Source of the DNA: a virus
Taxonomy: Duplodnaviria; Caudoviricetes
Virus record (IMG/VR): IMGVR_UViG_3300044620_001883
Coordinates: 1 to 64,000 of that record
Length of the DNA: 64,000 nucleotides
Reading direction: 5' to 3' (one strand)
This document shows, in pieces, positions 1,958 to 19,100 of the stretch. The stretch's first letter is position 1. Each line of letters starts with the position of its first letter. Under the pieces are notes generated by a model. That model ran no database searches. It had not been told where the DNA came from and saw only the letters and a program-made list of their open reading frames with translations. The translations under genes were made by a program, and so were the position numbers.

Positions 1958-2347
1958 ATGAAAACTCTCCCACAAATCCGCGAAGAACTGGAGGCTGATC
2001 AAGTCAACACCACGCTCACCAAGCTCGTCAACGGCGAGTCCATCACATGCACAGCCGATGAACGGGCAGCGATCATTGATGAACGGGCGCAAACGCTTTT
2101 CGACCGTCAGCAGCTTCAACTCACGGTCTCCTTTCGCGCCCTGGCCTTCGTGTTGCTGGAAGCCGGACTCTATGAGCAGGTCAAAACTGCCGCCATGGCC
2201 ACGCCCGCCGGAGAGATATGGTGGAACACCGCGCAAAGCAACACCGTGAGCCGCCAGCATCCATTCGTCGCAGCACTCGGCGCGGCCATCGGCCAAACAT
2301 CCGAACAACTCGACACCATCTTTGCTGCCGCAGCACTTCAAGCCTAA
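1958..2347 (+). CDS. Putative fibre assembly/chaperone-like protein (paralog 1)
   Basis: Follows the fibre gene; C-terminal FRALAF..AGLYEQVK..EIWW..TVSR.HPFV motif shared with 2551-3039. Start moved to ATG 1958. Confidence 0.55.
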   Translation: MKTLPQIREELEADQVNTTLTKLVNGESITCTADERAAIIDERAQTLFDRQQLQLTVSFRALAFVLLEAGLYEQVKTAAMATPAGEIWWNTAQSNTVSRQHPFVAALGAAIGQTSEQLDTIFAAAALQA

Positions 2348-2353
2348 CCCATT

Positions 2354-2554
2354 ATGAGTCACGACGAATCTGCCGCACTGGACAGCATGCGCCAAACAAT
2401 TCGCTGGTTGATCGGCGGCATTGCTAGCCTTATCGGTGGCGCGGCCTTCCGTACAAACACGACTTACTACCGGTATTACCGTATTAAGAAGACAGCAGGC
2501 GCTGTCAACGGAGCGCCATGGGCGTACCAATTTGAGTTCAAAATATCCGCATGA
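2354..2554 (+). CDS. Small, apparently chimeric ORF (hydrophobic N-part plus fibre-tip-like C-part)
   Basis: WLIGGIASLIGGAA switches abruptly at ~2447 to FRTNTTYYRYYRIKK...YQFEFKISA. Confidence 0.4.
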   Translation: MSHDESAALDSMRQTIRWLIGGIASLIGGAAFRTNTTYYRYYRIKKTAGAVNGAPWAYQFEFKISA

Positions 2555-3039
2555 AGAAGATCTACAATACCATCACGCAGACATTCCTGCCGACTTACCC
2601 GCGCGACGATGATGAGCCGATTGTTGGGCTTGATCCAACGCTGGAAGTCTACGAAGTCGTAGAAGAACCACCACCCGAAATCGCCGAGAATCAGTACCTC
2701 GAGCGTGTGGAGGAGCTCGACCATGTAAACAAAACATTAACGATGGGGTGGCGGACACACGAGACGCCTGTCGTTGCACCTGTCGTTATCACGCCTGTTG
2801 TTGTGCCTATCACTGTACCGTTTAGGTCGCTGGCTTTTGCACTCCGCGACGCTGGCCTTTATCAGCAAGTCAAAGCTGCAGCTTTGAGTTCAGAAGACGG
2901 CGAAATCTGGTGGTACACAGCACAAAGCTCCACGGTCAGCCGTGACCATCCTTTTGTGGAACAACTTCGTATCGCCCTCGACAAAACCACAGAGGAGATT
3001 GATGCTGTTTTTAACACCGCCGCTGCATTTATACCGTAA
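2551..3039 (+). CDS. Putative fibre assembly/chaperone-like protein (paralog 2)
   Basis: C-terminal ~70 aa align with 1958-2347 (FRSLAF..AGLYQQVK..EIWW..TVSRDHPFV). Confidence 0.55.
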   Translation: MKKIYNTITQTFLPTYPRDDDEPIVGLDPTLEVYEVVEEPPPEIAENQYLERVEELDHVNKTLTMGWRTHETPVVAPVVITPVVVPITVPFRSLAFALRDAGLYQQVKAAALSSEDGEIWWYTAQSSTVSRDHPFVEQLRIALDKTTEEIDAVFNTAAAFIP

Positions 3040-3091
3040 AACATTCACATCTCACTTGAAAAATCCATTCCCCACCGTGGGCTGTACGACC

Positions 3092-4912
3092 ATGAAGACA
3101 TTACTGCATACCATCCTGCTGCTCGCAATCTGGTGCGCCGCCGTACAAGCACAAACTCCGGCGACTAGCCCCCATCAACCCAGGAATACCAATCTGACCA
3201 ACATTGCAGCGCTGACGACCACAGCGTTTGGTCGCTCCGTGCTGGAAGCGGCCAACGCCGCGGCACTTCAAACCCTGGCGGACCTGCCCGCTTGGGTCGG
3301 CACTACCAATGTGACGACACTGGGAACCATCACGACCGGTGTCTGGAACGGGACCGCTATCCCGGTTTTGTATGGTGGCACCGGGGCCACGACTCAGGCG
3401 GCTGCCAGGACCAACCTCGGGCTGGTGATCGGCACCAATGTACAGCAGTGGAACACCAAGCTGGATGCTCTGGCTGGTGTGGCGAACAGTGCTGGGGTGT
3501 ACACCAACAACGGCAGCGGGACCATGAGTATCACGGCGGCTAGCGCCACGCCTGTGGTTGGTGCTCTAGTGAAGTATGACGCCAACGGCTACATTCGCGG
3601 ACAGGGAGAGTTGAGCACGGGCGTTGCGGGCGTGAGTGATGTTGTGGCGCTGTCTGGCGGTGAAATCACCATTTCACGCAATGGCTTCTCGGCGTACTCG
3701 GCGCTTTATGTGCCGGGTCGCAACACCTCACGGCGTCAGTACAACTTTCCCGACATCGACGCAACCAGTGTTGACCTCGTATCGCAGCAGGACACCGGCA
3801 CCGTCTCTGCGGCTATGCTCGCCAGCACCGCTGTGACGCCAGGCAGCTACACCTCTTCCAATATCACGGTCGATGCAGACGGAAGAATCACCGCCGCCAG
3901 CAATGGCAGCAGCGGCCTCACCATCGACAGCACCGCCATTAGCGGCGGAGCCTCGCAAGGCCTGCTTTACCACAAAAGCGACAACACTGTCGGTGAGGCA
4001 ACGGGAATCACACTTTCCGGCGGGGCGCTTTCAGGGCTTGCCCTCGCGGCTGGTACTCTGACAGCAAGCGCGCCCGTCACCATGACGCAAACCTGGAACA
4101 ACGCGGCCGTGGCCTTCACAGGGCTTGATGTCAACATCACCGAGACGGCAGCGGCGGGTCTGTCCACCTACATGCGGGTTCGCTCCTCAAGAAGCGCCGC
4201 GGATATATTCAAACTGCAATACTCTCAGTACGGCACATACACAGATTTGAGTTTGGGAGGTACTACGTCAGACGCTAGCGCCTTCACGTTGCGTAGTGGT
4301 TACGGGCATGCACAATTATATGCAGTTAGCCTTGGACTTTACAGCGACTCCCAGGTGGGGTTTGTGCTTGCCAGCTCCAACGGCACGGTATTCACATATC
4401 TCACGCCGTCAGCCGCTAAATTGTTCCAGCGAAACAGCACCACCGCACAGGCGTTTAACGTGTGCAACACGTACACCAGCACCGTGTCCTTTGAGTCCAT
4501 GTCGCTGGATTGGTCGTCCGACGTGGGACGGGTAGGAACCCTGAAAGGTGCGTCAGGTGGCAGCGCCCGTGAATGGGTGCTGCATTACGATGGCACCGAG
4601 AAGGCGCGGGTGTCCTCCTCCGGATTTACCATCGGGTCCTCCGGGACCGCTGTCTCATCCGTCTTGTCCGCCGTCGCGACCAAAGACTTCAACCTCACGG
4701 CTGTTATCGTCGAGGACCTGACCATGACAGTCACGGGAGCTGCTGTCGGCGACGTTGTGAGCCTGGGCGTTCCGCACGGGAGCGTCACCGCCACCGCACA
4801 GTTCACCGCCTGGGTCTCCGCCACCGACACCATCACGATCCGTTGCAGAACTGCCATTGCAGGCGAGAATCCAGCCAGCGGGTCCTTCCGGGCGACCGTC
4901 ACGAAACATTGA
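3092..4912 (+). CDS. Fibre-like protein with N-terminal signal-peptide-like sequence
   Basis: Likely start ATG 3092: MKTLLHTILLLAIWCAAVQA|Q. Shares modules with the first fibre (TTLGTITTGVWNG, YGGTGA..ARTNLGL.IG..VQ). Confidence 0.7.
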   Translation: MKTLLHTILLLAIWCAAVQAQTPATSPHQPRNTNLTNIAALTTTAFGRSVLEAANAAALQTLADLPAWVGTTNVTTLGTITTGVWNGTAIPVLYGGTGATTQAAARTNLGLVIGTNVQQWNTKLDALAGVANSAGVYTNNGSGTMSITAASATPVVGALVKYDANGYIRGQGELSTGVAGVSDVVALSGGEITISRNGFSAYSALYVPGRNTSRRQYNFPDIDATSVDLVSQQDTGTVSAAMLASTAVTPGSYTSSNITVDADGRITAASNGSSGLTIDSTAISGGASQGLLYHKSDNTVGEATGITLSGGALSGLALAAGTLTASAPVTMTQTWNNAAVAFTGLDVNITETAAAGLSTYMRVRSSRSAADIFKLQYSQYGTYTDLSLGGTTSDASAFTLRSGYGHAQLYAVSLGLYSDSQVGFVLASSNGTVFTYLTPSAAKLFQRNSTTAQAFNVCNTYTSTVSFESMSLDWSSDVGRVGTLKGASGGSAREWVLHYDGTEKARVSSSGFTIGSSGTAVSSVLSAVATKDFNLTAVIVEDLTMTVTGAAVGDVVSLGVPHGSVTATAQFTAWVSATDTITIRCRTAIAGENPASGSFRATVTKH

Positions 4913-4923
4913 ACACTTCCCTC

Positions 4924-5280
4924 ATGAAACACATCCTCCTTATCCTGCTCACCTGTACTGCAGCTATCTCTACCCTCCATGCCGTCGACCCGGTCGTGGT
5001 AGTTCGCAGTGCCACCAGTGTCACGGTAGACGGTATCGACTACGGCAAACCTGTCGACGCCATTGCGAACAACCCACAGCTCACCTCACCTATCCAACGC
5101 GCCCTTGAGGTTTGGGTAGCTGGTGTTGTGGCGGCCCAAGCAGAAGCTGAGGCGCAGCGAGCAGCCGAAGCTGCCAAGATTCGCGCGATCCTGAGCGCGC
5201 GCCTCACGGCCGAGCTCGCTACCGGAGACGGGCCCAAAGCTGCGCTCATTCGGGAGATCCAGGCCGCTCTCGAAGAGTAA
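4924..5280 (+). CDS. Small protein with signal-peptide-like N-terminus
   Basis: ATG 4924: MKHILLILLTCTAAISTLHA|V, followed by an Ala-rich helical C-terminus. Confidence 0.6.
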   Translation: MKHILLILLTCTAAISTLHAVDPVVVVRSATSVTVDGIDYGKPVDAIANNPQLTSPIQRALEVWVAGVVAAQAEAEAQRAAEAAKIRAILSARLTAELATGDGPKAALIREIQAALEE

Positions 5281-5302
5281 CAAACCACACACCCACACCC
5301 TA

Positions 5303-5713
5303 ATGAGCGTACGCCCTCTTTGGCTCGAATCGACCACATTACCCGCGGATGGTGCCCCATTGCGCCTCAAGACCGGTGCTACCGGGGAGGTGGAGGAGGG
5401 AGCTGCAGCCGCACCGTGGACCACCCTCAGTGTGGGGGACACTGGAGCCACCCTTGTGAACAACGCGCGGCATCTGGTGAATACCACAGGCGGTGCAATG
5501 AGCCTTTACTTACCAGGATCACCAAGCGCCGGTGCGAACGTCCGGTTGCTGGATGCCGTCAGGACGTGGGTCTCGAACAACTGCACTGTTTTAAGGAACG
5601 GCGCTCTCATTGAAGGTGCCACTGATGATCTCGTCCTCGATGTCAGCGGTGCCTGTGTGGAGCTTGTCTACAGCGGCGCTGCCTTTGGCTGGCGCGTCAT
5701 CCTCACCCCATAA
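5303..5713 (+). CDS. Phage fibre-associated domain protein
   Basis: NTTGGAMSLYLPGSPSAG.NV.LLDA...NN.TV.RNG..IEG..DDLVLDV.GA.VELVYSG..FGW, a module I recognise from myovirus fibre/baseplate proteins. Confidence 0.6.
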   Translation: MSVRPLWLESTTLPADGAPLRLKTGATGEVEEGAAAAPWTTLSVGDTGATLVNNARHLVNTTGGAMSLYLPGSPSAGANVRLLDAVRTWVSNNCTVLRNGALIEGATDDLVLDVSGACVELVYSGAAFGWRVILTP

Positions 5714-5719
5714 AACGGC

Positions 5720-6082
5720 ATGTTGCTCTCGGCTTCATTTCTCGACAACGCCAAGGTTCCCGGTATCGCGGGCCCCCCTGGACCTACGGGGCCCGACGGC
5801 ACAGCGGGCGAACCGGGTCTGCCTGGATCACCTGGACCTGCAGGAGCCGACTATGCTGGCCCGCCGGGCGAACCTGGCAGCCCAGGTGCGGCTGGGCCTG
5901 CGGGGAGCCTGGGACCACCAGGACCGGCTGGTCCACCGGGAAGCGACGGCGCAACAGGCCTCGATGGTGAAGTAGGTTTACCCGGAGGGTTGGGAGAAGA
6001 ACCAGGACCACCAGGACCTAGCGGGCCGGTGGGTCCTCCAGGACCACCAGGACCTGACGGTCCCCCAGGTCCGCCGGGCTAA
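5720..6082 (+). CDS. Collagen-like protein 1 (120 aa, 34 Gly-X-Y triplets)
   Basis: 14-aa leader, then Gly-X-Y triplets with two short interruptions; GPP-rich C-terminus. Confidence 0.9.
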
Positions 6083-6103
6083 CTGCGCAACCTTACCAAT
6101 CAC

Positions 6104-6460
6104 ATGATCTCACTTCGTTCCCTCGTTGTTCATACAACTGCTCCGCCAGGACCACCAGGCCCGTCGGGCGCGCCATCACTGTCAAACGGTACGCCTGGGC
6201 TGGATGGTGCCGAAGGTGCGCCTGGTATGCCTGTTCCTGGTCCTCCAGGTCCAGCAGGCGACATGGGAACTTCGGGCGATCCTGGAACCGAAGGCCCACC
6301 CGGACCGACAGGGACAGACGGCAACCCAGGTGCACCAGGAGCTGTCGGACTCACGGGTATCCCCGGACCTCCAGGTCCTCCAGGACCCGATGGACCTCCA
6401 GGACCCGATGGACCTCCAGGACCGGAGGGTCCCGCAGGTCCTCCAGGAACACCTCCCTAA
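6104..6460 (+). CDS. Collagen-like protein 2 (118 aa, 32 triplets)
   Basis: 15-aa leader, then Gly-X-Y triplets including an uninterrupted run of 24. Confidence 0.9.
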
Positions 6461-6486
6461 ATCCCACCCCGCACATCTTCTTCATC

Positions 6487-6837
6487 ATGACCCTATCCAC
6501 CTTACGACCTGTTTTTGTCGGCAATCCTGGCGAACCAGGCACAAGCGGAACTCCAGGAACTGCGGGTCCAGCAGGATCTCCGGGCAGTCCGGGAGCTGAT
6601 GCGCTGGTGCCGGGGCCTCAAGGCGGTCCCGGCGACTCTGGCCCACCGGGTCCTCCAGGCCCTGATGGTTTGCCGGGTCCTCCAGGACCTCCGGGTACCG
6701 ACAACGGGTACGCGGGGATGCCAGGATCTCCGGGGGCACCAGGACCGCCTGGAGTTGGTCCCCCTGGGATCGAAGGCCCTCCCGGAGCGGCTGGACCTCC
6801 AGGACCTCCAGGACCTCCAGGACCCCCTGGCGCGTAG
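6487..6837 (+). CDS. Collagen-like protein 3 (116 aa, 32 triplets)
   Basis: 11-aa leader, then Gly-X-Y triplets ending (GPP)4GA. Confidence 0.9.
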
Positions 6838-6876
6838 GGTAATACCGTTTAAGCGACAGCCCACCATACAAAACTT

Positions 6877-7251
6877 GTGCTCACACCAACCAGCGAGATA
6901 CTCCCAGACCAAATAGGACCTGCGGGTCTTGCTGGTTCGCACGGTCCCAACGACGGGGCGTTCCTGTGTGAATGCATTCGCGGCGCCATGCCACAATTAC
7001 TGCGCGCCTGTGAATTTTACGTGGGCTACTCGCACCACCGCAACCTGACACCAGAACATCCTCTTGTGGTCGCCATAGCGGCGCTTGAAAAAGTCTACGA
7101 GCAGCACATCCATTCTGCAAACATGCTGCACGATCCTGAGTTGTTTCACATCCCGGACACATTGTTCCAGACCCCGACCCAGTACTGGGGCTACCCCGAA
7201 CCAATTGACACACAAGCTCCGACTGGTATGGATGATGCCCATAACCCCTAA
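6877..7251 (+). CDS. Hypothetical protein between the collagens and the dioxygenase
   Basis: Fills the operon gap; GTG start; no recognisable motif. Confidence 0.5.
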   Translation: MLTPTSEILPDQIGPAGLAGSHGPNDGAFLCECIRGAMPQLLRACEFYVGYSHHRNLTPEHPLVVAIAALEKVYEQHIHSANMLHDPELFHIPDTLFQTPTQYWGYPEPIDTQAPTGMDDAHNP

Positions 7252-7263
7252 TCCGACAAGCTC

Positions 7264-7845
7264 ATGAATGGCTGGTGGCGCGCATTTTACAATCAACTCA
7301 CTCCTGCCGAGTGTAATCAAGTAATCGAGTACGGGCTCACGCACACACCCGTGCAGGGCACCATCGGGCATGGCGGAGGTACGACTATCGTGCAGCCGGA
7401 TTTCAGGCAGTCTACCGTGCGGTGGTTCAAGCGGAGCGATCCGAAACTCCATTGGCTTTACCTGCGCATGGAGGACATGGCGTTGCAGGCGAACGCCATT
7501 TCGTTTGGGTTTGATATCGCAGGCTTCAGGGATGTGCAGTTCACCGAGTACGACGGTGCCAAGAAGGGCCATTACGACTGGCATGAGGACAATTGCTGGA
7601 AGGGTAGTACGCCGTATGACCGCAAGTTGTCCATGGTCATCCAGCTCTCAGATCCGACCACTTACAAAGGCGGACAGCTGGAGCTGCAGAATGACCCGTT
7701 CCACAACACCCCGGGCAACAAAGTTCTGGTGAATCAGGGGGATGTGATCGTGTTCCCGTCCCATAACCGCCACCGCGTCACTGACGTCACGGAGGGGATG
7801 AGGTACTCGCTCGTGACCTGGTTTATTGGTCCGCGTTTCAGGTGA
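7264..7845 (+). CDS. 2OG-Fe(II) dioxygenase (prolyl-hydroxylase/PKHD-like)
   Basis: QFTEY..GHYDWHED (HxD), RKLSMVIQLS, YKGGQL, GDVIVFPS..RHRV (distal His), RYSLVTW (2OG-binding Arg). Confidence 0.9.
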   Translation: MNGWWRAFYNQLTPAECNQVIEYGLTHTPVQGTIGHGGGTTIVQPDFRQSTVRWFKRSDPKLHWLYLRMEDMALQANAISFGFDIAGFRDVQFTEYDGAKKGHYDWHEDNCWKGSTPYDRKLSMVIQLSDPTTYKGGQLELQNDPFHNTPGNKVLVNQGDVIVFPSHNRHRVTDVTEGMRYSLVTWFIGPRFR

Positions 7846-7913
7846 CGATGGTTTGTCAGGGATGACCTGACCTTGGACATTTGTGCTATTGCTGAGCACG
7901 CGCATACGGGCGA

Positions 7914-8558
7914 TTGTTTGAATCTATGATCCCGCCTCCAATCCCTGGTATGTCCGTTGTCCCTGCGACACGCTGCGCCCAGCAGATGCCCCGTTTGCAA
8001 CCTGATGGTCTAGGCAGCATTCGTCTCTACACCGCCACGGTACCTGCTCAGGAATGTGCCGTGCACATCACGCGGGAGAGTCGGATCATTCTGTCAGACC
8101 CACGTGGCAGCCGAGTCTTTCAGGACGCAAACCAACAAGGCGCGCGGTATGCTTGGTTTGTCTTCCAACGTGGTGAGGCTTTGGAGCCCGGCATCTACCG
8201 GCTGAGCTGGCTGCGTAGTGACGGTGTTTTTGGGACGCGGGATTTCGAAGTGCCTGACAGCCCGTTCCACCCGGGGTCCTCATTCGACCTTGCATCGGGT
8301 GCTCGTGATGGTTTTTCGGTGGAGCTGATTTATCGGGGGCACACGATTCTTCCAGCCAATGAGACCTCAGTTCTGCTTGAAGCCCCCTTCGAGCTGAATC
8401 CTATTTACCACCGCCCCGCCTGGGCAATCCTGGCCACAGGTAACAAAGTTGTACCGGGTGTCTCGCTGGAGATCACCCACACGTATCCCAAAGCCTGGCG
8501 TGTGACCTGTTCGCCGGTATCAGACGTGGAACGTCGCATCGACTGGGTTGTCTACTGA
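7914..8558 (+). CDS. Hypothetical protein, beta-rich
   Basis: 214-aa ORF continuing the operon; no motif recognised. Confidence 0.55.
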   Translation: MFESMIPPPIPGMSVVPATRCAQQMPRLQPDGLGSIRLYTATVPAQECAVHITRESRIILSDPRGSRVFQDANQQGARYAWFVFQRGEALEPGIYRLSWLRSDGVFGTRDFEVPDSPFHPGSSFDLASGARDGFSVELIYRGHTILPANETSVLLEAPFELNPIYHRPAWAILATGNKVVPGVSLEITHTYPKAWRVTCSPVSDVERRIDWVVY

Positions 8559-10954
8559 GCAACAGGCTGAAGATGCGGAGGCTCCCCGTAATACGTTTCC
8601 AGCAACGCGAAGGCCGAGTAGGCGTCAATCTCGATACGGTTGCCCTGATGCACCACCACATCGTCTGCGAGCCGCCGGAGTTCTAGTTCCAATGAGATCA
8701 TGTCCAGCTCGTCAGAGAACCGGTCAGCGTCACAGAAAACCTTCTGGGCCTTGAAGTCATAGCTAAAAATTTCAGCCACCTCCGTCTTGGGTATCTGCTG
8801 CAGCAGCTGCTCCGTCCATTCAAAGGACGGTGTGTCCGCCTCAAGTTCCAAGCCGCAGTAAGTGTGTAGAAACTCGCGCGCGCATGAGATCAGACTGTTC
8901 GTGTACAGAACGGATTGCTGCTGCTGCCACTGATGCGGCTCAGGTAAGGCCAGAAGTGTTTCACACACCCGCCTCACCAAACCCCTCAGGGTCTCAGCCG
9001 CGCGCCCCAAGACTTCCTCGGAATGCTGCTCCCGGACGATCTGGCCGTGGTCGCAGAGCAGGAAGTAGGGGGCGTGGATTTTGCCGGTGACGCGCCCAAC
9101 TGTGGCCCACACGGGGTACTGGTGGAGCCCCTCGGCGTCGCGTTCCACGCGGGAGACCGGACGGATCTGCCCGAGGCCGCGGAACAGTCCCTCCAGGAGC
9201 CCCGCCGCCGGCCCGTCATGGCGGACCTGCACGGCCTGCAGGCGCTCCCCACGCTGGCCCCGGATAATGGAGCCCAGGATCATGAGCATGAAGGTCTGGA
9301 CCTCTCGGGGCAGGTCCAGATCGATCGCGGCATCGAGATGCTTCTCGGCCGAGAAAGCATCTAGGGCCTGGACATCGGGGTGCAGTGGGAAGTCATCCTG
9401 GATGATGCCGTCCATGCCAATGATGGCCCCGGCAGTAAAGAAGGTGTCGCGTTTGAAGTTCCAACCCAGGAACGGCAACCCGATGCGGGTGCTCAATCGT
9501 GGCAGTGTCCCCCGCAGATAGAAGGCCACGCTCCGGAACGCACTGGGGTCCCGCAACATCGGAACCAGGAGGCTCTTCCCCGCAGCCAGGAGTAACTGGA
9601 TGTGCTCCTGGAGCTCCCGGGGCGAATCGAGTAGACGACCCGGCAGGATCATGTCCTGCTGGACATCCCCAATCAGGACCGAGGCCCGGTGGTGCAGGGC
9701 CGCCTTCTCCCCGAATGTCACGTTGCCGTCGATCCGGACAATGAAGTTGCTGAAGAGTTCCAGGGGACCACCACCACGCCTGACCCCATAACCCTCCGGG
9801 GTCTCCAACGTGATGGTCCGGTCAGTACGGGCGATTTCGATGCTGTACAGGGATCGGGCCAGTTGGTCTGCCGCTCCAACAAACCCGGCACTCTTGAGCC
9901 GTCCATGGAGTGCTTGCTTGAGCCACCCCTGTGGGTTGAAGGAACCCAACAGTACAAGACCCTGACTGGTCAAGCTTGAGCGCCGGATGTGCCGCTTCAG
10001 GACTCGGAACATGAAGTCATCGAAGCCCACCGGAGAGCCTGCCCCCATCGCGACCTTGATGTCCGGCCAAGCCCGCTGCATCCGGGCAATCAGGGTCGTC
10101 GATGTGTGTTCGTCGTGTTGGGCCACGAGAGCCGGGAGATCCGGCACCGTACTGTCGCCCTGCCCGAACAGGCATGTCAGCGAGACCGTCAGGGGATCCT
10201 GTACACGCCACCGGCTATTTTGAATCCCGGCCGAGATCGCAGTGTCATGGAGGTACACCTGCTGGGCGGTCGGGGATAACATCCTGAGCCCCGCGACGGC
10301 CACCCGGTAGTTGGTGAAGGGAATAGTAGTCTGCCAAGTTCCTCGGGGGTTCGTCAGCACAACCGCAGAGAGTGCGTGGGCCTTCTCCCAGTAGGCAATC
10401 ATTAACAACGGGGCCTCAGGTGGGAGCTTGGGCTCTGGCAACCCCAACGAGGTAAGCAGGGTCATGAAGGCTGGACGTTCCGCAGGTAGCATAACACCAA
10501 TGAGATGCTGCCCGGGATCGTAGATCCCGAGTTGCTGAAGCTCGGCCAACACGGAGGCCCTGAGACCATTGACATCCAGGGGAGCTTGCAGCTTTCGCAC
10601 GTACTGACATAACCGCCGACGCATTCGGGCTTGGCTGGTTATGAGTGGTACAAAGTTCTCAGGAGTGAACTCAGGACAGCGTAGAATGCGGTCTTGGAAC
10701 AGTCGCAGAAGTTCCTCGAGACCCTTCGCGTAATCACGATGCTTCGCAGACGCAATCTCAACTACGGACCCGGCCAGCATCGGACAGCTGTTATTCTGAC
10801 ACAGGTAGCTGTCGGACTGGATCCAGAGATCTGCACCGCAGTACGGACAGTCCATGATGTAACAATCATTGAGACGTCGCGTGCTGTACCCCAGGTACTC
10901 GGCAGTCTCGAGTGGGCGAATCAATTGTTCCAGTTGCTCCAGGGATTCAAACAT
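8552..10954 (-). CDS. Large protein with N-terminal Cys4 zinc finger; possible degenerate primase/helicase-associated protein
   Basis: CPYC...C.N.SC near the N-terminus; central FSNFIVRI...FLGWN..FF segment reminiscent of DUF927-type domains; no intact Walker A or TOPRIM motif seen. Confidence 0.45.
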   Translation of the reverse strand: MFESLEQLEQLIRPLETAEYLGYSTRRLNDCYIMDCPYCGADLWIQSDSYLCQNNSCPMLAGSVVEIASAKHRDYAKGLEELLRLFQDRILRCPEFTPENFVPLITSQARMRRRLCQYVRKLQAPLDVNGLRASVLAELQQLGIYDPGQHLIGVMLPAERPAFMTLLTSLGLPEPKLPPEAPLLMIAYWEKAHALSAVVLTNPRGTWQTTIPFTNYRVAVAGLRMLSPTAQQVYLHDTAISAGIQNSRWRVQDPLTVSLTCLFGQGDSTVPDLPALVAQHDEHTSTTLIARMQRAWPDIKVAMGAGSPVGFDDFMFRVLKRHIRRSSLTSQGLVLLGSFNPQGWLKQALHGRLKSAGFVGAADQLARSLYSIEIARTDRTITLETPEGYGVRRGGGPLELFSNFIVRIDGNVTFGEKAALHHRASVLIGDVQQDMILPGRLLDSPRELQEHIQLLLAAGKSLLVPMLRDPSAFRSVAFYLRGTLPRLSTRIGLPFLGWNFKRDTFFTAGAIIGMDGIIQDDFPLHPDVQALDAFSAEKHLDAAIDLDLPREVQTFMLMILGSIIRGQRGERLQAVQVRHDGPAAGLLEGLFRGLGQIRPVSRVERDAEGLHQYPVWATVGRVTGKIHAPYFLLCDHGQIVREQHSEEVLGRAAETLRGLVRRVCETLLALPEPHQWQQQQSVLYTNSLISCAREFLHTYCGLELEADTPSFEWTEQLLQQIPKTEVAEIFSYDFKAQKVFCDADRFSDELDMISLELELRRLADDVVVHQGNRIEIDAYSAFALLETYYGEPPHLQPVAQ

Positions 10955-11045
10955 ACGGTGGGGTTCAGATTAACGGGGGCGCCCAGGAATGCAAATGCTG
11001 GGGCGGGCGGGAACTATGCAATTCGATGGGTATTCACGTTATAGA

Positions 11046-11980
11046 GTTTTGGAAGCGGGCTGTTTTAGCGACAACTGCATTCCTCGCTTGCACCCTGCGG
11101 GGTGAACAAGATCTGAGTGGAGGACAGCCTCGCGACTCGGCATCGAACATACACACCCCTGGTGGGTTCGACTGACAGTCACATGGGGGATTCACCACAG
11201 CGACGTGTGGTGGTCAGACATATCAAATCTCGTCGCCACCTGCAGCAAGACTACAGGGAAGCCAACACAGTGGATCTGTGCTCTGCAACACTTTAGGACA
11301 TCCACGGATGTCCATGCATGCGCGACTCGAGCGGAGTCGGTGCAGAATAGTTTCCCCGCAAGGGGTCAAAGGAAACCGCAGCGGGTTGCTCTGCCGTGGT
11401 TTCACCTGATGGTGCCGTCGTACGCGCCTACATCACCCAAGCCCTTGAGGCAGTACGATAAGAAGGAGAGCGGCACCGCCCGCTTGCGAATCACCAATTA
11501 AAGGTGGGCAAGTAATCTCTCCTCCCTGGAACTTCCTTTGCGAGCAACAGCTCAGGGAATCCAGGCGGCGGTGCCACATTTCGCCCAGGGCTTCGAGCCA
11601 GGGTATCCGGTTATGGCAACCAACAACGAAGCCACCAAAACCCAAGAGCTGCTCACTCGGCTCTTTGGGATCTGTGACCGCAACGTGGCCCAACAGGCCA
11701 CGTTGCGGAAGCAGAAGGAGGACAACCGCCTAGCGGACCTCCGTCGTCGTGGGACACTCTGGTGTCCTCACAAAAACGAGTGAGCAACCCGTCCCTTCAG
11801 GGACGGGACCCTTTCCCTCGGGATCGCGGTCGACGCGATGCGCAGGAGCTGCTGGAATGTTTACCATCAATGTTGGCGACCAACAGCAGCAGACCACGCC
11901 CTGTTTACCCGGGGTGTGGTCAACAATTTCCCGCGGCATACGCGGGCCCCGGCACTGCCACGGTTACACCGGCAGGTAGA
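11046..11980 (+). ncRNA. Candidate large, highly structured non-coding RNA (~930 nt)
   Basis: More than 20 hand-verified stems, e.g. 11296-11302/11307-11313, 11354-57/11362-65 (GCAA loop), 11472-80/11567-75, 11482-90/11537-45, 11678-90/11696-708 (perfect 13 bp), 11788-95/11800-07, 11892-900/11913-21, 11930-35/11941-46. G-U wobbles work on the + strand only. Confidence 0.6.
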
Positions 11981-15638: not shown

Positions 15639-16181
15639 ATGGGTACAGATAGTGCTGCATCATTCACTCCTGTACCCCACCATGTCGTACTTCGGCGTTC
15701 CTGGTTTTTACCGACGTGGGAAGGTTTGCGGTACAAAGAGGCGCCCGCGAAACATCCACGACTGAAGACCCCCTTCTCCGGTGTTGTGAACTTCTCCACG
15801 CAGTTACCGCCCATGGGCAAGCCCTACCCGGTTTTGAACCAAGTGGCGTATGACATGATGCGTAGGCTTCGCCGCGAACTCTCATGTGACATGCCTCCAA
15901 TGGATGAATCCCGCCATGGGGAGGCTTGGTTGGATATACACAACGGAGAACCCTTGGGATGTGTGACGATAAACATGGAAGCAGGCGAGCGCTTTTTGCT
16001 TGGTGCCTGGGTGCGGCCTTGTAGCAGGCGACAAGGGATCATGACGCGTTTGCTGGGCGCCGTCGCATGCAAGTACGGCAGCTTGCGGGCCATCCGACCG
16101 TCCCCGGCAATGAGAAACCTGCTAGCCCTTGACCACCATTCCCCGGAAAGCCGCCATGTTGCCGGTGTGGAGCCCACCTGA
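15639..16181 (+). CDS. GNAT-fold acetyltransferase-like protein
   Basis: LGCVTI...LLGAWVRPCSRRQGIMTRLL matches the GNAT acetyl-CoA-binding motif (V.P..R.QG). Confidence 0.6.
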   Translation: MGTDSAASFTPVPHHVVLRRSWFLPTWEGLRYKEAPAKHPRLKTPFSGVVNFSTQLPPMGKPYPVLNQVAYDMMRRLRRELSCDMPPMDESRHGEAWLDIHNGEPLGCVTINMEAGERFLLGAWVRPCSRRQGIMTRLLGAVACKYGSLRAIRPSPAMRNLLALDHHSPESRHVAGVEPT

Positions 16182-19100
16182 GGAACCATTGAGCTGGTCG
16201 TTGACGTAGTTGCGCAGATTCGGATCGTCGAACATGGGCTCCTTGAGCAGCAGCCGCGCTAGCACGAAGGCGAAGTTGACGGCATGCATGGTGTCGTCCG
16301 CCTTCGTGGAGTTGCGGATATGCAGGAAGTACTGACGCCCGTGACGGGTCTCGGCGTGCACACGCTGGCTGTTCAGGAAGTCATCCAAGTAAGGTTGGGC
16401 TGCGTCCCAAGCGTAACAGCGGATGCGCTGTTTCTTGATGGCTTCAAACAACTGCGTGATCGACTCAGTTTTGTTCAGCATGTACTGGGCTGGGAACTGC
16501 TGGAACTGCGGACGCGTGATCATTGGCAGATAGGGTGGAGAATAACCCCAGACGAAGTGCCGGTTGGGGTTCACACGCGCGTCGCGGTGGAGATAGGTGT
16601 TGTAGGCAAGCCCCGCGCCGAAGTCACTCGCAATCGCGGTGCCGCCGTATTCTGCGTGGGCCTTCAAGATGGACTCCGCGATTTCATCGTACTGCATACC
16701 CGAGTAACGGCGCATGTACAGGATGTCCATTTTGCCGTCTCCGTAGACACCCAGGATGATATGCACCGTGTAAGACGTCTTGGTCAGCCGGGACATCTGC
16801 GCGTCGGAGCCGCCCCAGTCACAACCGCTGACAATGAACCGATACGGGTTCTTGCTCTTGATGGCTTTGTGCAGCTGCGAGATGTCCCGGTAGGGGAGGG
16901 TGCAGATCGCCTGCAGATCCTTCTGGTTGATTTCTTTGAAGCCTTCCTCGGTTGCGATACCCCCAACTTCCTGCAAGGTCCTGGTCTCGCCGAAGTCCTG
17001 CAAGTACTTGAAGATCTTGGGCCACTCCTTGGGTGTCAGGAAGTCTGGAATCAGAAACTGTGGGATATGGATCCCGAGGATATTCTGATCGAGCTTGTGG
17101 GGTGCGGCGTGGGCATAGACACCATTTAGGGGGTTTGTAATCAGCCGGTCCGTGAATGGACACGTGAGACCCTTCTCCCGGATCATCTTCAGGACCTGTA
17201 CGCCGTCGGAACAGTCGATGAAGTCCTTGCCGTTCGGACTGCGCATCATCCACACGCCACCTGAACTCTGCTGGAACCGGTGCTCCAGTGGGCTGTCGAT
17301 CGTCGTCGAGGTACCGCTGTAGACCGTCACCGGGTTGCTGGTGTTGCGCTGCAGCTGCCGGATTTCAGCCTCAAGTCTGATGTCGAACAACTGATACTCA
17401 TCGTAGAGCAGTTCGTCGGCGGTTTTACCGCGCATGTGGGCCGCGCTAGTGAGCACGCGGTGCAGCTCGATGCGGCTGCCCGTCTTGTACTCCTTGAACT
17501 GCAGATTGTTGCGGAAACCCTTGGTCTCCAGGGAGTAACGGAAGCAGCGCTCCATGTCCCGCAGTTTGGTCGCGTAGGTCTTGATGTGATCCAGGTGCGG
17601 TGCGATGTAGATCGACACCCACGGCATCAACTGGGTCAGGATCAACTGCCGGGCTGACATATTCGTGGAGTTGTGACTCACGACTCCATTGATGACGTAG
17701 CTGTGGTGTCCATCCACCTCAATGTCCCACGCCGGTAGAGTACCAAGAGGTTTGATGCTACGTACTGAGGTCCAAGTTACAGGACCTTCAACAAGGTTAC
17801 GCAGCTGTCGGAACAACAGGCCGGGTCTGCCGTGCCTCTCAACGTAACCCAGCAGCGCGCGCAATTTGCGTCGCGTATACGAATTGGAGCTGTGCAGCTT
17901 CAACCCGATTGCCCGGTTCATACCCTTGATGGAAATGCGTTTGCCTGGAATACATGCTTCCTTCAGGACAGCGTGGATAAGTGCATGATACGAACCAGGC
18001 AACACGTCCTTGTTGCTGTTGGAAACCGTGGACGTGATACGCTCGGGAAGACGGTTCATCTCCTTGCCTGGAACCTGAAACAGTTCAATGAAAGTCTGCC
18101 AACCCTCACGACTTTCAATGCGCACAACATGCGCGTCACGGCAACGTTTGTACACACCATCCTTTTTGTACCCAGCCTTGACTGTGCTCAAGGATGAAGG
18201 CAAGCCGAACTTCCACAAGAGAGCCTGAACCCCTTCGGCCAATTTGCGGGAAGTGGACGAATACGTGATTTGCATCATCGTAGCCGCTGGTTTCACCATA
18301 CCATCCGTCGCCCACAGGTAATTGATGAACTCTATAGTGTCCTCAAAAGAAAGGTCAAAGACCCAAGCTGGGATCTGTTTATCCCAGGCATACTTGCCTA
18401 TCAGGTTGTCCTCAATGGCCCATTGCAACACTTCACCATCTCGGTTGCAGGCAATATGCACTGCATGTGTTCCCTTCTTATCATGGACCCGCACAGGGCG
18501 AGCTTGGCGTGGAGTGCAAATGCGCACAAACTCATCACGCAGTGCAGCATTGGCAGCGGTGAAACTGACAGTCCGATCTACCGTACTGCCATCGCCCAGG
18601 ATCATGGCCAGCAGGCGAATCCGATCCAAACCAGGGACCGCAGTGCCGGTGAACACCCCACCTTGACGCACATCCGCTACGAAATCGCCGACTTTCAAAT
18701 CTCTCACTTCTTTCCAGCCTTCGGGAGTGAGAAGTCGGTGGTTGTCCGACAGTTTAAGTTGCGCACCAGACCGCAGAGAAACTTCGCTGCACGGTAGTAC
18801 TCCCGCTTGGTGGACTGCCTGCACAGTGTGTTCACACAGTGTGTGCTCGTGGGGGTTCACACCGACTAGACGCATACCGGCTTTCAGGTCAGCCGGGTAG
18901 CATGGTAGCCCGTTGTGCCCCATTACAGGCTCATTTGCACCAACGACCCGGCATTTACTGATCTGCCGCGAACCCTTGATGACCAAGTACCCCTGGGTCA
19001 TCATTGAGTACATCGGAAAAGCAAACGGCCGCCGGCTCAGTGTCATAGGTGTGTTGGGCCCCCCGAAGTGGGGGAAGAACCAAGGTAACAAGAAGCCTGT

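Follow-up and report, generated by a model that had tools for sequence, protein, structure and literature searches.

It is generally held that the collagens of prokaryotes lack hydroxyproline and that collagen hydroxylation is eukaryotic, with the giant viruses as an oddity (PMC8968730). A gene block in a tailed phage raises the question of whether phages of bacteria also hydroxylate collagen fibers of their own. The block lies at positions 5303–7845 of a stretch of 64,000 nucleotides (the window), which comprises positions 1–64,000 of the 200,255 bp, 98%-complete IMG/VR virus record IMGVR_UViG_3300044620_001883 of a lake phage, and it contains three collagen genes (colA, colB and colC) together with a gene for a 2-oxoglutarate (2OG)-Fe(II) oxygenase. 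A preliminary description of the window had proposed a phage-encoded collagen hydroxylation system from the frequent occurrence of proline at the Y position of the Gly-X-Y triplets and from the nearby oxygenase. This conclusion is retained here on other grounds, namely a prolyl 4-hydroxylase (P4H) fold and a same-strand, often coupled linkage of enzyme and collagen genes, whereas the argument from Y-position proline is abandoned. On balance, the structural model of the 7264–7845 enzyme and the linkage of its gene argue for hydroxylation of the colA, colB and colC chains. Furthermore, phages with this enzyme–collagen pairing probably hydroxylate their own collagen fibers because related enzymes in many other phages also adjoin collagen genes.

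The putative substrates are encoded on the + strand by colA (5720–6082, 120 residues), colB (6104–6460, 118 residues) and colC (6487–6837, 116 residues). All three match the Pfam Collagen family PF01391 with 49.6–55.4 bits against a cut-off of 27.2 (E = 5.3e-15, 1e-14 and 3.2e-13, respectively), and they are the sole matches to this family in the whole 200,255 bp record. A triplet parse of the three chains gave approximately 100 Gly-X-Y triplets with proline at X in 46 and at Y in 53, in agreement with the frequent Y-position proline of the preliminary description; 28 triplets are GPP, GTP triplets also occur and the longest uninterrupted run is 24 triplets. The colA chain has a 14-residue N-terminal peptide followed by 10 + 16 + 8 triplets and ends in ...GPPGPPG, the colB chain has a 15-residue peptide followed by 3 + 5 + 24 triplets and ends in ...GPPGTPP, and the colC chain has an 11-residue peptide followed by 9 + 10 + 6 + 7 triplets and ends in ...(GPP)4GA. 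None of the chains contains a globular domain, (GPP)2–4 clusters are found at the C-termini, and the helical parts are almost devoid of Lys, Arg and His, with an acidic net charge. Chains of this composition are predicted to form a triple helix. The reading frames are considered to be real because the closest relative, the locus L009, keeps the identical three-gene layout, in which each gene has its own start and a short N-terminal peptide; the third chains of L009 and of a second close relative, L089, also have an N-terminal peptide similar to that of colC. The colA and colB genes share one frame, with a TAA stop and seven codons between them (6080–6103), which fits an origin by tandem duplication and does not argue for read-through. 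Fusion of the collagens by stop-codon read-through or recoding was ruled out by this TAA with its seven codons and by the separate genes of L009, as was read-through from colC into the following open reading frame (ORF) at 6877, since colC ends in TAG and a TAA follows four codons on.

The oxygenase gene (7264–7845, + strand) lies two genes downstream of colC, with one ORF between them, and carries an intact HxD...H...R motif, both as previously described. Its product of 193 residues, a candidate collagen prolyl hydroxylase, matches PF13640 (2OG-FeII_Oxy_3) over residues 92–187 with E = 4.5e-17 and 63.2 bits (cut-off 27). In a genome-wide search it was the sole PF13640 match of the record (64.7 bits), and the distance from this only PF13640 gene to the only collagen cluster of the genome is approximately 430 bp. 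The residues H107, D109, H170, R180 and S182 are invariant in an alignment of 44 homologs, and the catalytic residues align with the motif of PiuC; H107-x-D109...H170 are predicted to bind iron, and R180 (with S182) 2OG. The AlphaFold2 model built on the 44 homologs (predicted local distance difference test score, pLDDT, 90.8) consists of a double-stranded β-helix core with N-terminal helices of the prolyl-hydroxylase type, and one catalytic domain fills the protein from end to end (residues 1–193). In a structural comparison of this model using Foldseek and VIA-align, the 50 best PDB matches were all peptidyl-prolyl 4-hydroxylases or PiuC-type PKHD proteins, with Z scores of 15–20 over residues 1–193. 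The matched hydroxylases are PPHD, an algal P4H, PHD2, the Trichoplax and Dictyostelium PHDs and vCPH of PBCV-1. The best match was PPHD with EF-Tu (4iw3; Z = 19.8), followed by the algal CrP4H with a (Ser-Pro)5 peptide (3gze; Z = 18.9), PHD2 (Z of about 18), vCPH (5c5t; Z = 16.9 over 165 residues) and PiuC (Z = 15.7). Every characterized protein among the 50 best matches targets a peptidyl proline. vCPH and the collagen P4Hs bind 2OG via Lys and the PHDs via Arg, the residue found in the window enzyme. The enzyme is thus a member of PF13640 with a predicted prolyl-4-hydroxylase (PHD/PKHD) fold. Two narrower assignments were rejected. The best equivalog score, to YbiX/PiuC (NCBIfam PRK05467), was 59.6 bits against a cut-off of 143, and others reached 32–42 bits against 180–399; membership of the animal collagen P4H (C-P4H) α family was ruled out because the protein is a single catalytic domain of 193 residues that lacks a peptide-substrate-binding domain and a protein disulfide isomerase (PDI) subunit.

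An activity of the enzyme on collagen is supported indirectly by the linkage of the genes, which is observed directly. Collagen ORFs were sought in 80 viral and 70 cellular loci with enzyme relatives (cited here by their L numbers); a single-sequence scan of viral contigs with the enzyme had returned no relatives, and an alignment-based scan found them. A collagen gene lies within 3 kb of the enzyme relative in 51 of the 80 viral loci, or in 34 of 47 when only the loci whose flanks extend at least 3 kb in each direction are counted. The collagen filter has false negatives, such as L013, in which the enzyme gene starts 1 nt after the end of a collagen ORF. The viral loci contain 64 collagen ORFs at 0–2 kb from the enzyme (294 kb scanned) versus two at 3–10 kb (535 kb scanned), an approximately 60-fold excess in density, and all 68 of their collagen ORFs are on the strand of the enzyme. 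Where the enzyme follows the collagen, 23 of 41 pairs are spaced by no more than 300 bp, and in three pairs (L010, L090 and L091) the two genes share 4 bp, an arrangement suggestive of translational coupling. In a maximum-likelihood tree of 144 enzymes, the collagen link is confined neither to one side of the midpoint root nor to one gene order. It is kept in 23 viral clusters at 60% identity and absent in seven, and it persists across enzymes that are only 35–40% identical; the closest relatives by enzyme identity are L009 (69%) and L089 (70%). The converse, that a collagen rich in Y-position proline predicts the enzyme, was not supported, as described below.

Nine viral records without an adjacent collagen were also considered, and five of these, mostly incomplete contigs, contain collagen elsewhere on the same contig; given the contig sizes, this is compatible with the link and not significant alone. 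One of them, the 194 kb phage G001 that contains L018 (regions at about 106,000–114,500 and 158,460–158,760), encodes collagen proteins of 3030 and 847 residues apart from the enzyme. A cultured representative of the family is the Synechococcus virus S-PRM1 (L159, NC_055761.1 123406–135960). Its fiber protein gp158 (1824 residues, with an S74-like self-cleaving C-terminus) contains 59 uninterrupted triplets (GPK, GQK and GPT), in which Y is Lys or Thr. After one further small gene come gp160 and gp161, both 2OG oxygenases, the latter being 40% identical to the window enzyme. It is possible that gp160 and gp161 form a prolyl-plus-lysyl hydroxylase pair in a culturable system.

The partner collagens also indicate which residue might be modified. 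The residues common to all of them are Gly and Pro only, proline is the only hydroxylatable residue present in every one and Lys is almost absent from the partners of viral enzyme relatives, on which ground lysyl hydroxylation was ruled out. Gly-X-Y triplets make up almost all of the partner proteins of the window, L009 and L089, which leaves hardly any room for a target elsewhere. That the enzyme instead modifies the fiber at Asp, Asn or Lys, or in a part that is not collagen, appears very improbable: although the residues hydroxylated by 2OG oxygenases include Asp, Asn, Lys, Arg and His, the marine partner collagens are rich in Asn at X and gp158 of S-PRM1 has Lys at Y beside two oxygenases, most partners contain hardly any Lys and the window chains hardly any Asn, the window chains have almost no non-collagen part and the characterized structural neighbors are all prolyl hydroxylases.

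The position of the proline within the triplet follows the enzyme clade. The clade of the window enzyme (at least 48% identical) is accompanied by collagens with proline at both X and Y (Y-position proline 31–86%), the next clade by collagens of the GPT or GPQ type with proline at X (Y-position proline 0–30%), and a marine group by collagens with proline only at Y (13–24%). A pure G+C effect explains Y-position proline only in part; its frequency is correlated with genome G+C (rho = 0.41), and loci with 62–70% G+C in other clades have high X-position and low Y-position proline. Since the position varies by clade, the link between enzyme and collagen across the family cannot rest on Y-position proline. 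A reverse test led to the same result. Viral pieces were collected by means of a (GPP)5 DNA pattern or colC, and the following counts hold among the matches listed, most of which have incomplete flanks. The enzyme was found in five of 87 viral pieces, and it lay within 3.5 kb of a Y-proline-rich collagen ORF in only one of 32 cases. Y-position proline, which the preliminary description had taken as the mark of a substrate, is therefore a weak argument: many partner collagens have proline only at X (GPT or GPQ types, with 0–20% at Y) and others only at Y, and in this sample Y-proline-rich phage collagens mostly have no enzyme nearby, so that phage collagens as a whole do not depend on hydroxylation. 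The P4H of Bacillus anthracis hydroxylates both X- and Y-position prolines of collagen peptides (PMC8968730), and a hydroxylase with a relaxed or clade-specific positional preference would consequently fit the data.

A number of observations weigh against an activity on collagen. The low frequency of the enzyme beside Y-proline-rich collagens is one, and no single positional specificity fits the family as a whole. By sequence, the nearest solved proteins are the PKHD-type PiuC and Sbal_3634 (E of about 2e-6) and the match to vCPH is marginal (phmmer E = 0.097), while EF-Tu, and not collagen, is the substrate of PPHD, the closest match by structure. A small clade of large phages (L014, L015, L018 and L092) has no adjacent collagen, and most cellular homologs (Acidimicrobiia, Rhodobacterales and Kordiimonas) also lack one, the gene being solitary among chromosomal genes. 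Finally, tail-fiber regions are known hot spots for accessory genes, and in the window an orphan ORF parts the collagens from the enzyme. Much of this would suit an accessory gene (a moron or an auxiliary metabolic gene) that is directed at the host, for example at EF-Tu (as for Pseudomonas PPHD), a ribosomal protein, a small molecule or iron uptake (as proposed for PiuC/YbiX), and that is found in a fiber region only because such regions collect genes of this kind. Cyanophage 2OG oxygenases have indeed been read as nitrogen-stress or repair functions (PMC3037559), and the cyanophage copies often adjoin a helicase; the caution of the preliminary description that the family is common in phages without collagens thus applies to the wider family, although not to the roughly 80 nearest viral relatives. 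However, hitch-hiking fails to explain the excess of collagen near the enzyme, the invariably shared strand, the 4 bp overlaps, the occurrence of both gene orders and the persistence of the link at low enzyme identity, and the neighbors of the enzyme are collagens specifically and not any fiber gene. An accessory function directed at the host is accordingly regarded as unlikely. Among the cellular homologs, L142, L143, L131 and L111 (from Ruegeria, Leisingera, Kordiimonas and Acidimicrobiia) are 33–38% identical to the window enzyme and have no collagen nearby.

The remaining genes of the block indicate the context in which a collagen hydroxylase would act. ORF 5303–5713 (+ strand) ends 6 nt before colA and encodes a small protein of the XD-type fiber-docking class, as assigned from PHROG tail-protein matches, a profile comparison and an AlphaFold2 model. 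Residues 38–136 form one XD-type β-domain like those of the N-terminal region of CBA120 TSP4 (TSP4-N) and of T4 gp10 and gp9. The profile matches TSP4-N (7rfv, 7rfo and 7rej) with E of about 1e-6 (1.4e-6 for 7rfv), and the best Foldseek matches of the model (pLDDT 88) are TSP4-N (7rfv, E = 2e-10), the KP1 baseplate, T4 gp10 and gp9. In CBA120 TSP4-N, T4 gp10 and gp9, such domains dock fibers onto baseplates (PMC8825819), and the presence of an XD adaptor beside the collagens places the latter in a fiber-attachment module. A homolog of this ORF lies directly upstream of the three collagens of L009 and is the only neighbor that also occurs there. No homologs of similar length were found, and an exhaustive search identified the domain as a widespread fiber domain. 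Among representative proteins, 5,873 contain it, frequently more than once, and a single protein of 4242 residues has as many as 15 copies (P0122 is among the matches).

The ORF between colC and the enzyme gene (6877–7251, + strand) encodes 124 residues (87 in the public gene call) and had been put forward as a possible cofactor. It has no match in Pfam, PHROG or NCBIfam and no tblastn match in the 150 related loci, and only itself was matched among 5.8 billion proteins; the corresponding position is empty in L009 and L089. A role as a conserved cofactor of the module was ruled out for this orphan, which is absent from the closest relatives. The + strand holds every convincing gene between 153 and 8558, and the gaps between the genes of the collagen block are 6–39 nt. 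Neither a promoter-like site nor an excess of terminator-like signals over shuffled sequences was found in a scan of 2000–11500, and the block is consequently not split into separate units. It is likely that the block 5303–7845 is a late co-directional fiber module composed of an XD adaptor, three collagen chains and a dedicated peptidyl-prolyl hydroxylase.

Within this module, the reaction may be envisaged as follows. Fe(II) would be bound via H107, D109 and H170 and 2-oxoglutarate via R180, and in the infected cell the enzyme would use O2 to turn prolines of the new, still unfolded colA, colB and colC chains into hydroxyproline, at X, at Y or at both, as 4- or 3-hydroxyproline. The hydroxyproline would stabilize a triple helix approximately 100 residues (roughly 30 nm) in length. 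As this helix would have neither a globular trimerization domain nor charge pairs of Lys or Arg with acidic residues, the only obvious nucleation site would be the C-terminal (GPP)2–4 cluster, from which the chains may zip in the C-to-N direction into one A-B-C heterotrimer with breaks equidistant from the C-terminus. The short N-terminal peptides would attach the fiber to the virion, perhaps through the XD adaptor. The need for stabilization in chains that have no globular domain, almost no basic residues in the helix and a net acidic charge supports hydroxylation. Alternatively, the collagens may be hydroxylated with the hydroxyl serving mainly as a handle for glycosylation or as a receptor-binding surface rather than for thermal stability, as in plant hydroxyproline-rich glycoproteins, Skp1 and mimivirus collagen. 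Hydroxylation followed by glycosylation is known in plants and Dictyostelium and in mimivirus (PMC9546862), GPP-rich chains may be stable without hydroxyproline, and the many Y-proline phage collagens of the above sample without a nearby enzyme would agree with this. Nevertheless, no glycosyltransferase family was detected among the neighbors examined and the chains lack every other stabilizing device, and a primary role other than stabilization is considered to be quite unlikely.

Whether the three chains would form one helix or three can be approached through the breaks in the Gly-X-Y repeat, the register of which was read directly from the chains. In the window, a break lies 74–76, 73–75 and 74–78 residues from the C-terminus of the three chains, respectively. 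L009 has five breaks per chain that match in all three (at about 103–106, 81–84, 60–63, 40–46 and 28–31), and the patterns in L040 are [31]-2-[7], [30]-3-[7] and [30]-3-[7]. Helix lengths are nearly equal among the chains of each three-collagen phage. Three tandem collagens beside the enzyme occur in two lineages: in the first (the window and L009) they lie upstream of the enzyme, and in the second (L027, L028, L031, L033, L040 and L055) they lie downstream. Assembly of colA, colB and colC as a single A-B-C heterotrimer is suggested by these sequences with something short of an even chance; it is favored because homotrimers impose no selection for the alignment of breaks between paralogs. An alternative to this part of the proposal only is that the chains form three separate homotrimeric fibers of equal design. 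All characterized bacterial and phage collagens are homotrimers (PMC8968730), and descent alone could give paralogs equal break positions, a point that counts against the heterotrimer. On the other hand, the register has been kept despite divergence of the sequence between the breaks, and it recurs in two separate lineages with equal helix lengths within each phage. Three homotrimers are a real, if somewhat less probable, possibility. The combined proposal, in which a hydroxyproline-containing phage collagen is produced by an operon-encoded single-domain hydroxylase and assembles as an A-B-C heterotrimer via a C-terminal (Gly-Pro-hydroxyproline)n nucleus and in-register breaks, and in which this arrangement recurs in many phage lineages, remains tentative and, taken together, rather doubtful. 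If it is true, this phage collagen would be the first outside eukaryotes and their giant viruses to be hydroxylated, and likewise the first natural one there to form a heterotrimer; the three-chain design would be a minimal natural model of chain selection and register without globular domains.

Two further features of the surrounding sequence may be mentioned. Directly upstream of the module, the fiber-region ORFs 3071–4912 and 4930–5280 (both + strand) have signal-peptide-like starts (MKTLLHTILLLAIWCAAVQAQ... and MKHILLILLTCTAAISTLHA..., respectively). At 16122–19271 (− strand), an ORF of 1049 residues has a match to PHROG 675, the terminase large subunit, and is interrupted by an intein that comprises a splicing domain and a LAGLIDADG endonuclease (Pfam PF14890 and PF14528).

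If true, a conserved phage module of collagen and hydroxylase would change the view of collagen hydroxylation as eukaryotic. It would also provide a small, soluble, single-subunit hydroxylase that has co-evolved with short collagens and that could help in the production of hydroxylated recombinant collagen in bacteria. A literature search, with most subscription journals outside its range, found no report of collagen hydroxylation in phages of bacteria or of a heterotrimeric phage collagen. To our knowledge, animals and giant viruses are the only cases in which hydroxylation of collagen fibers has been demonstrated to date. Other dioxygenase families have been predicted to modify bacterial collagen-like proteins, and phage dioxygenase arrays were read in the same study as secondary-metabolite enzymes (Iyer, Abhiman, de Souza and Aravind, 2010; PMC2938197). 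The module would, if confirmed, supply a concrete, testable substrate for the numerous orphan 2OG-Fe(II) oxygenases of phages, which since 2010 have been interpreted as metabolic or repair enzymes (PMC3037559; PMC2938197).

The proposed system can be compared with several that are known. It resembles animal C-P4H (α2β2 with PDI) in principle, in that Fe(II)/2OG hydroxylation would act on proline in unfolded Gly-X-Y chains ahead of triple-helix formation, and the GPP clusters at the C-termini are reminiscent of the sites at which fibrillar collagen nucleates; however, the window enzyme is a single domain of 193 residues in a cytoplasmic setting. Pseudomonas putida PPHD (4iw3) and animal PHD2 share its HxD...H...R arrangement and similar size and are among its best structural matches, whereas they modify one proline in a folded translation or regulatory protein (EF-Tu or HIF, respectively) rather than a repetitive chain, and their genes have no collagen genes linked to them. 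PiuC/YbiX and Sbal_3634 (9ghl, 9qn1 and 3dkq) are the best matches by sequence, and JGI names many homologs as PKHD-type hydroxylases of this kind, but these proteins are linked to iron uptake and the PRK05467 score of the window enzyme is far below the cut-off. The P4H of B. anthracis, which accepts (GPP)n peptides at X and Y (PMC8968730), would suit partners with proline at either position, although no linkage to a collagen gene has been established for it and it is not among the listed structural matches. Complement C1q is built from three different short collagen chains, encoded by three clustered genes and with a break at the same position, that form a heterotrimer; its C-terminal globular heads drive chain selection, whereas the phage chains have none. 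The gene-neighborhood reasoning applied here is that of Iyer et al. (2010; PMC2938197), in which 2OG dioxygenases were inferred to modify co-encoded Gly-rich collagen-like or tail-collar proteins. The nearest parallel in viruses is found in PBCV-1 (vCPH, 5c5t) and mimivirus (with the collagen-modifying enzymes L593 and L230), which encode their own prolyl hydroxylases and collagens (PMC9546862). In both cases a small single-domain viral 2OG prolyl hydroxylase is accompanied by viral Pro-rich or collagen-like proteins; these are, however, giant viruses of eukaryotes, whereas the window belongs to a tailed phage of bacteria in which the enzyme is linked in an operon to its presumed substrates.

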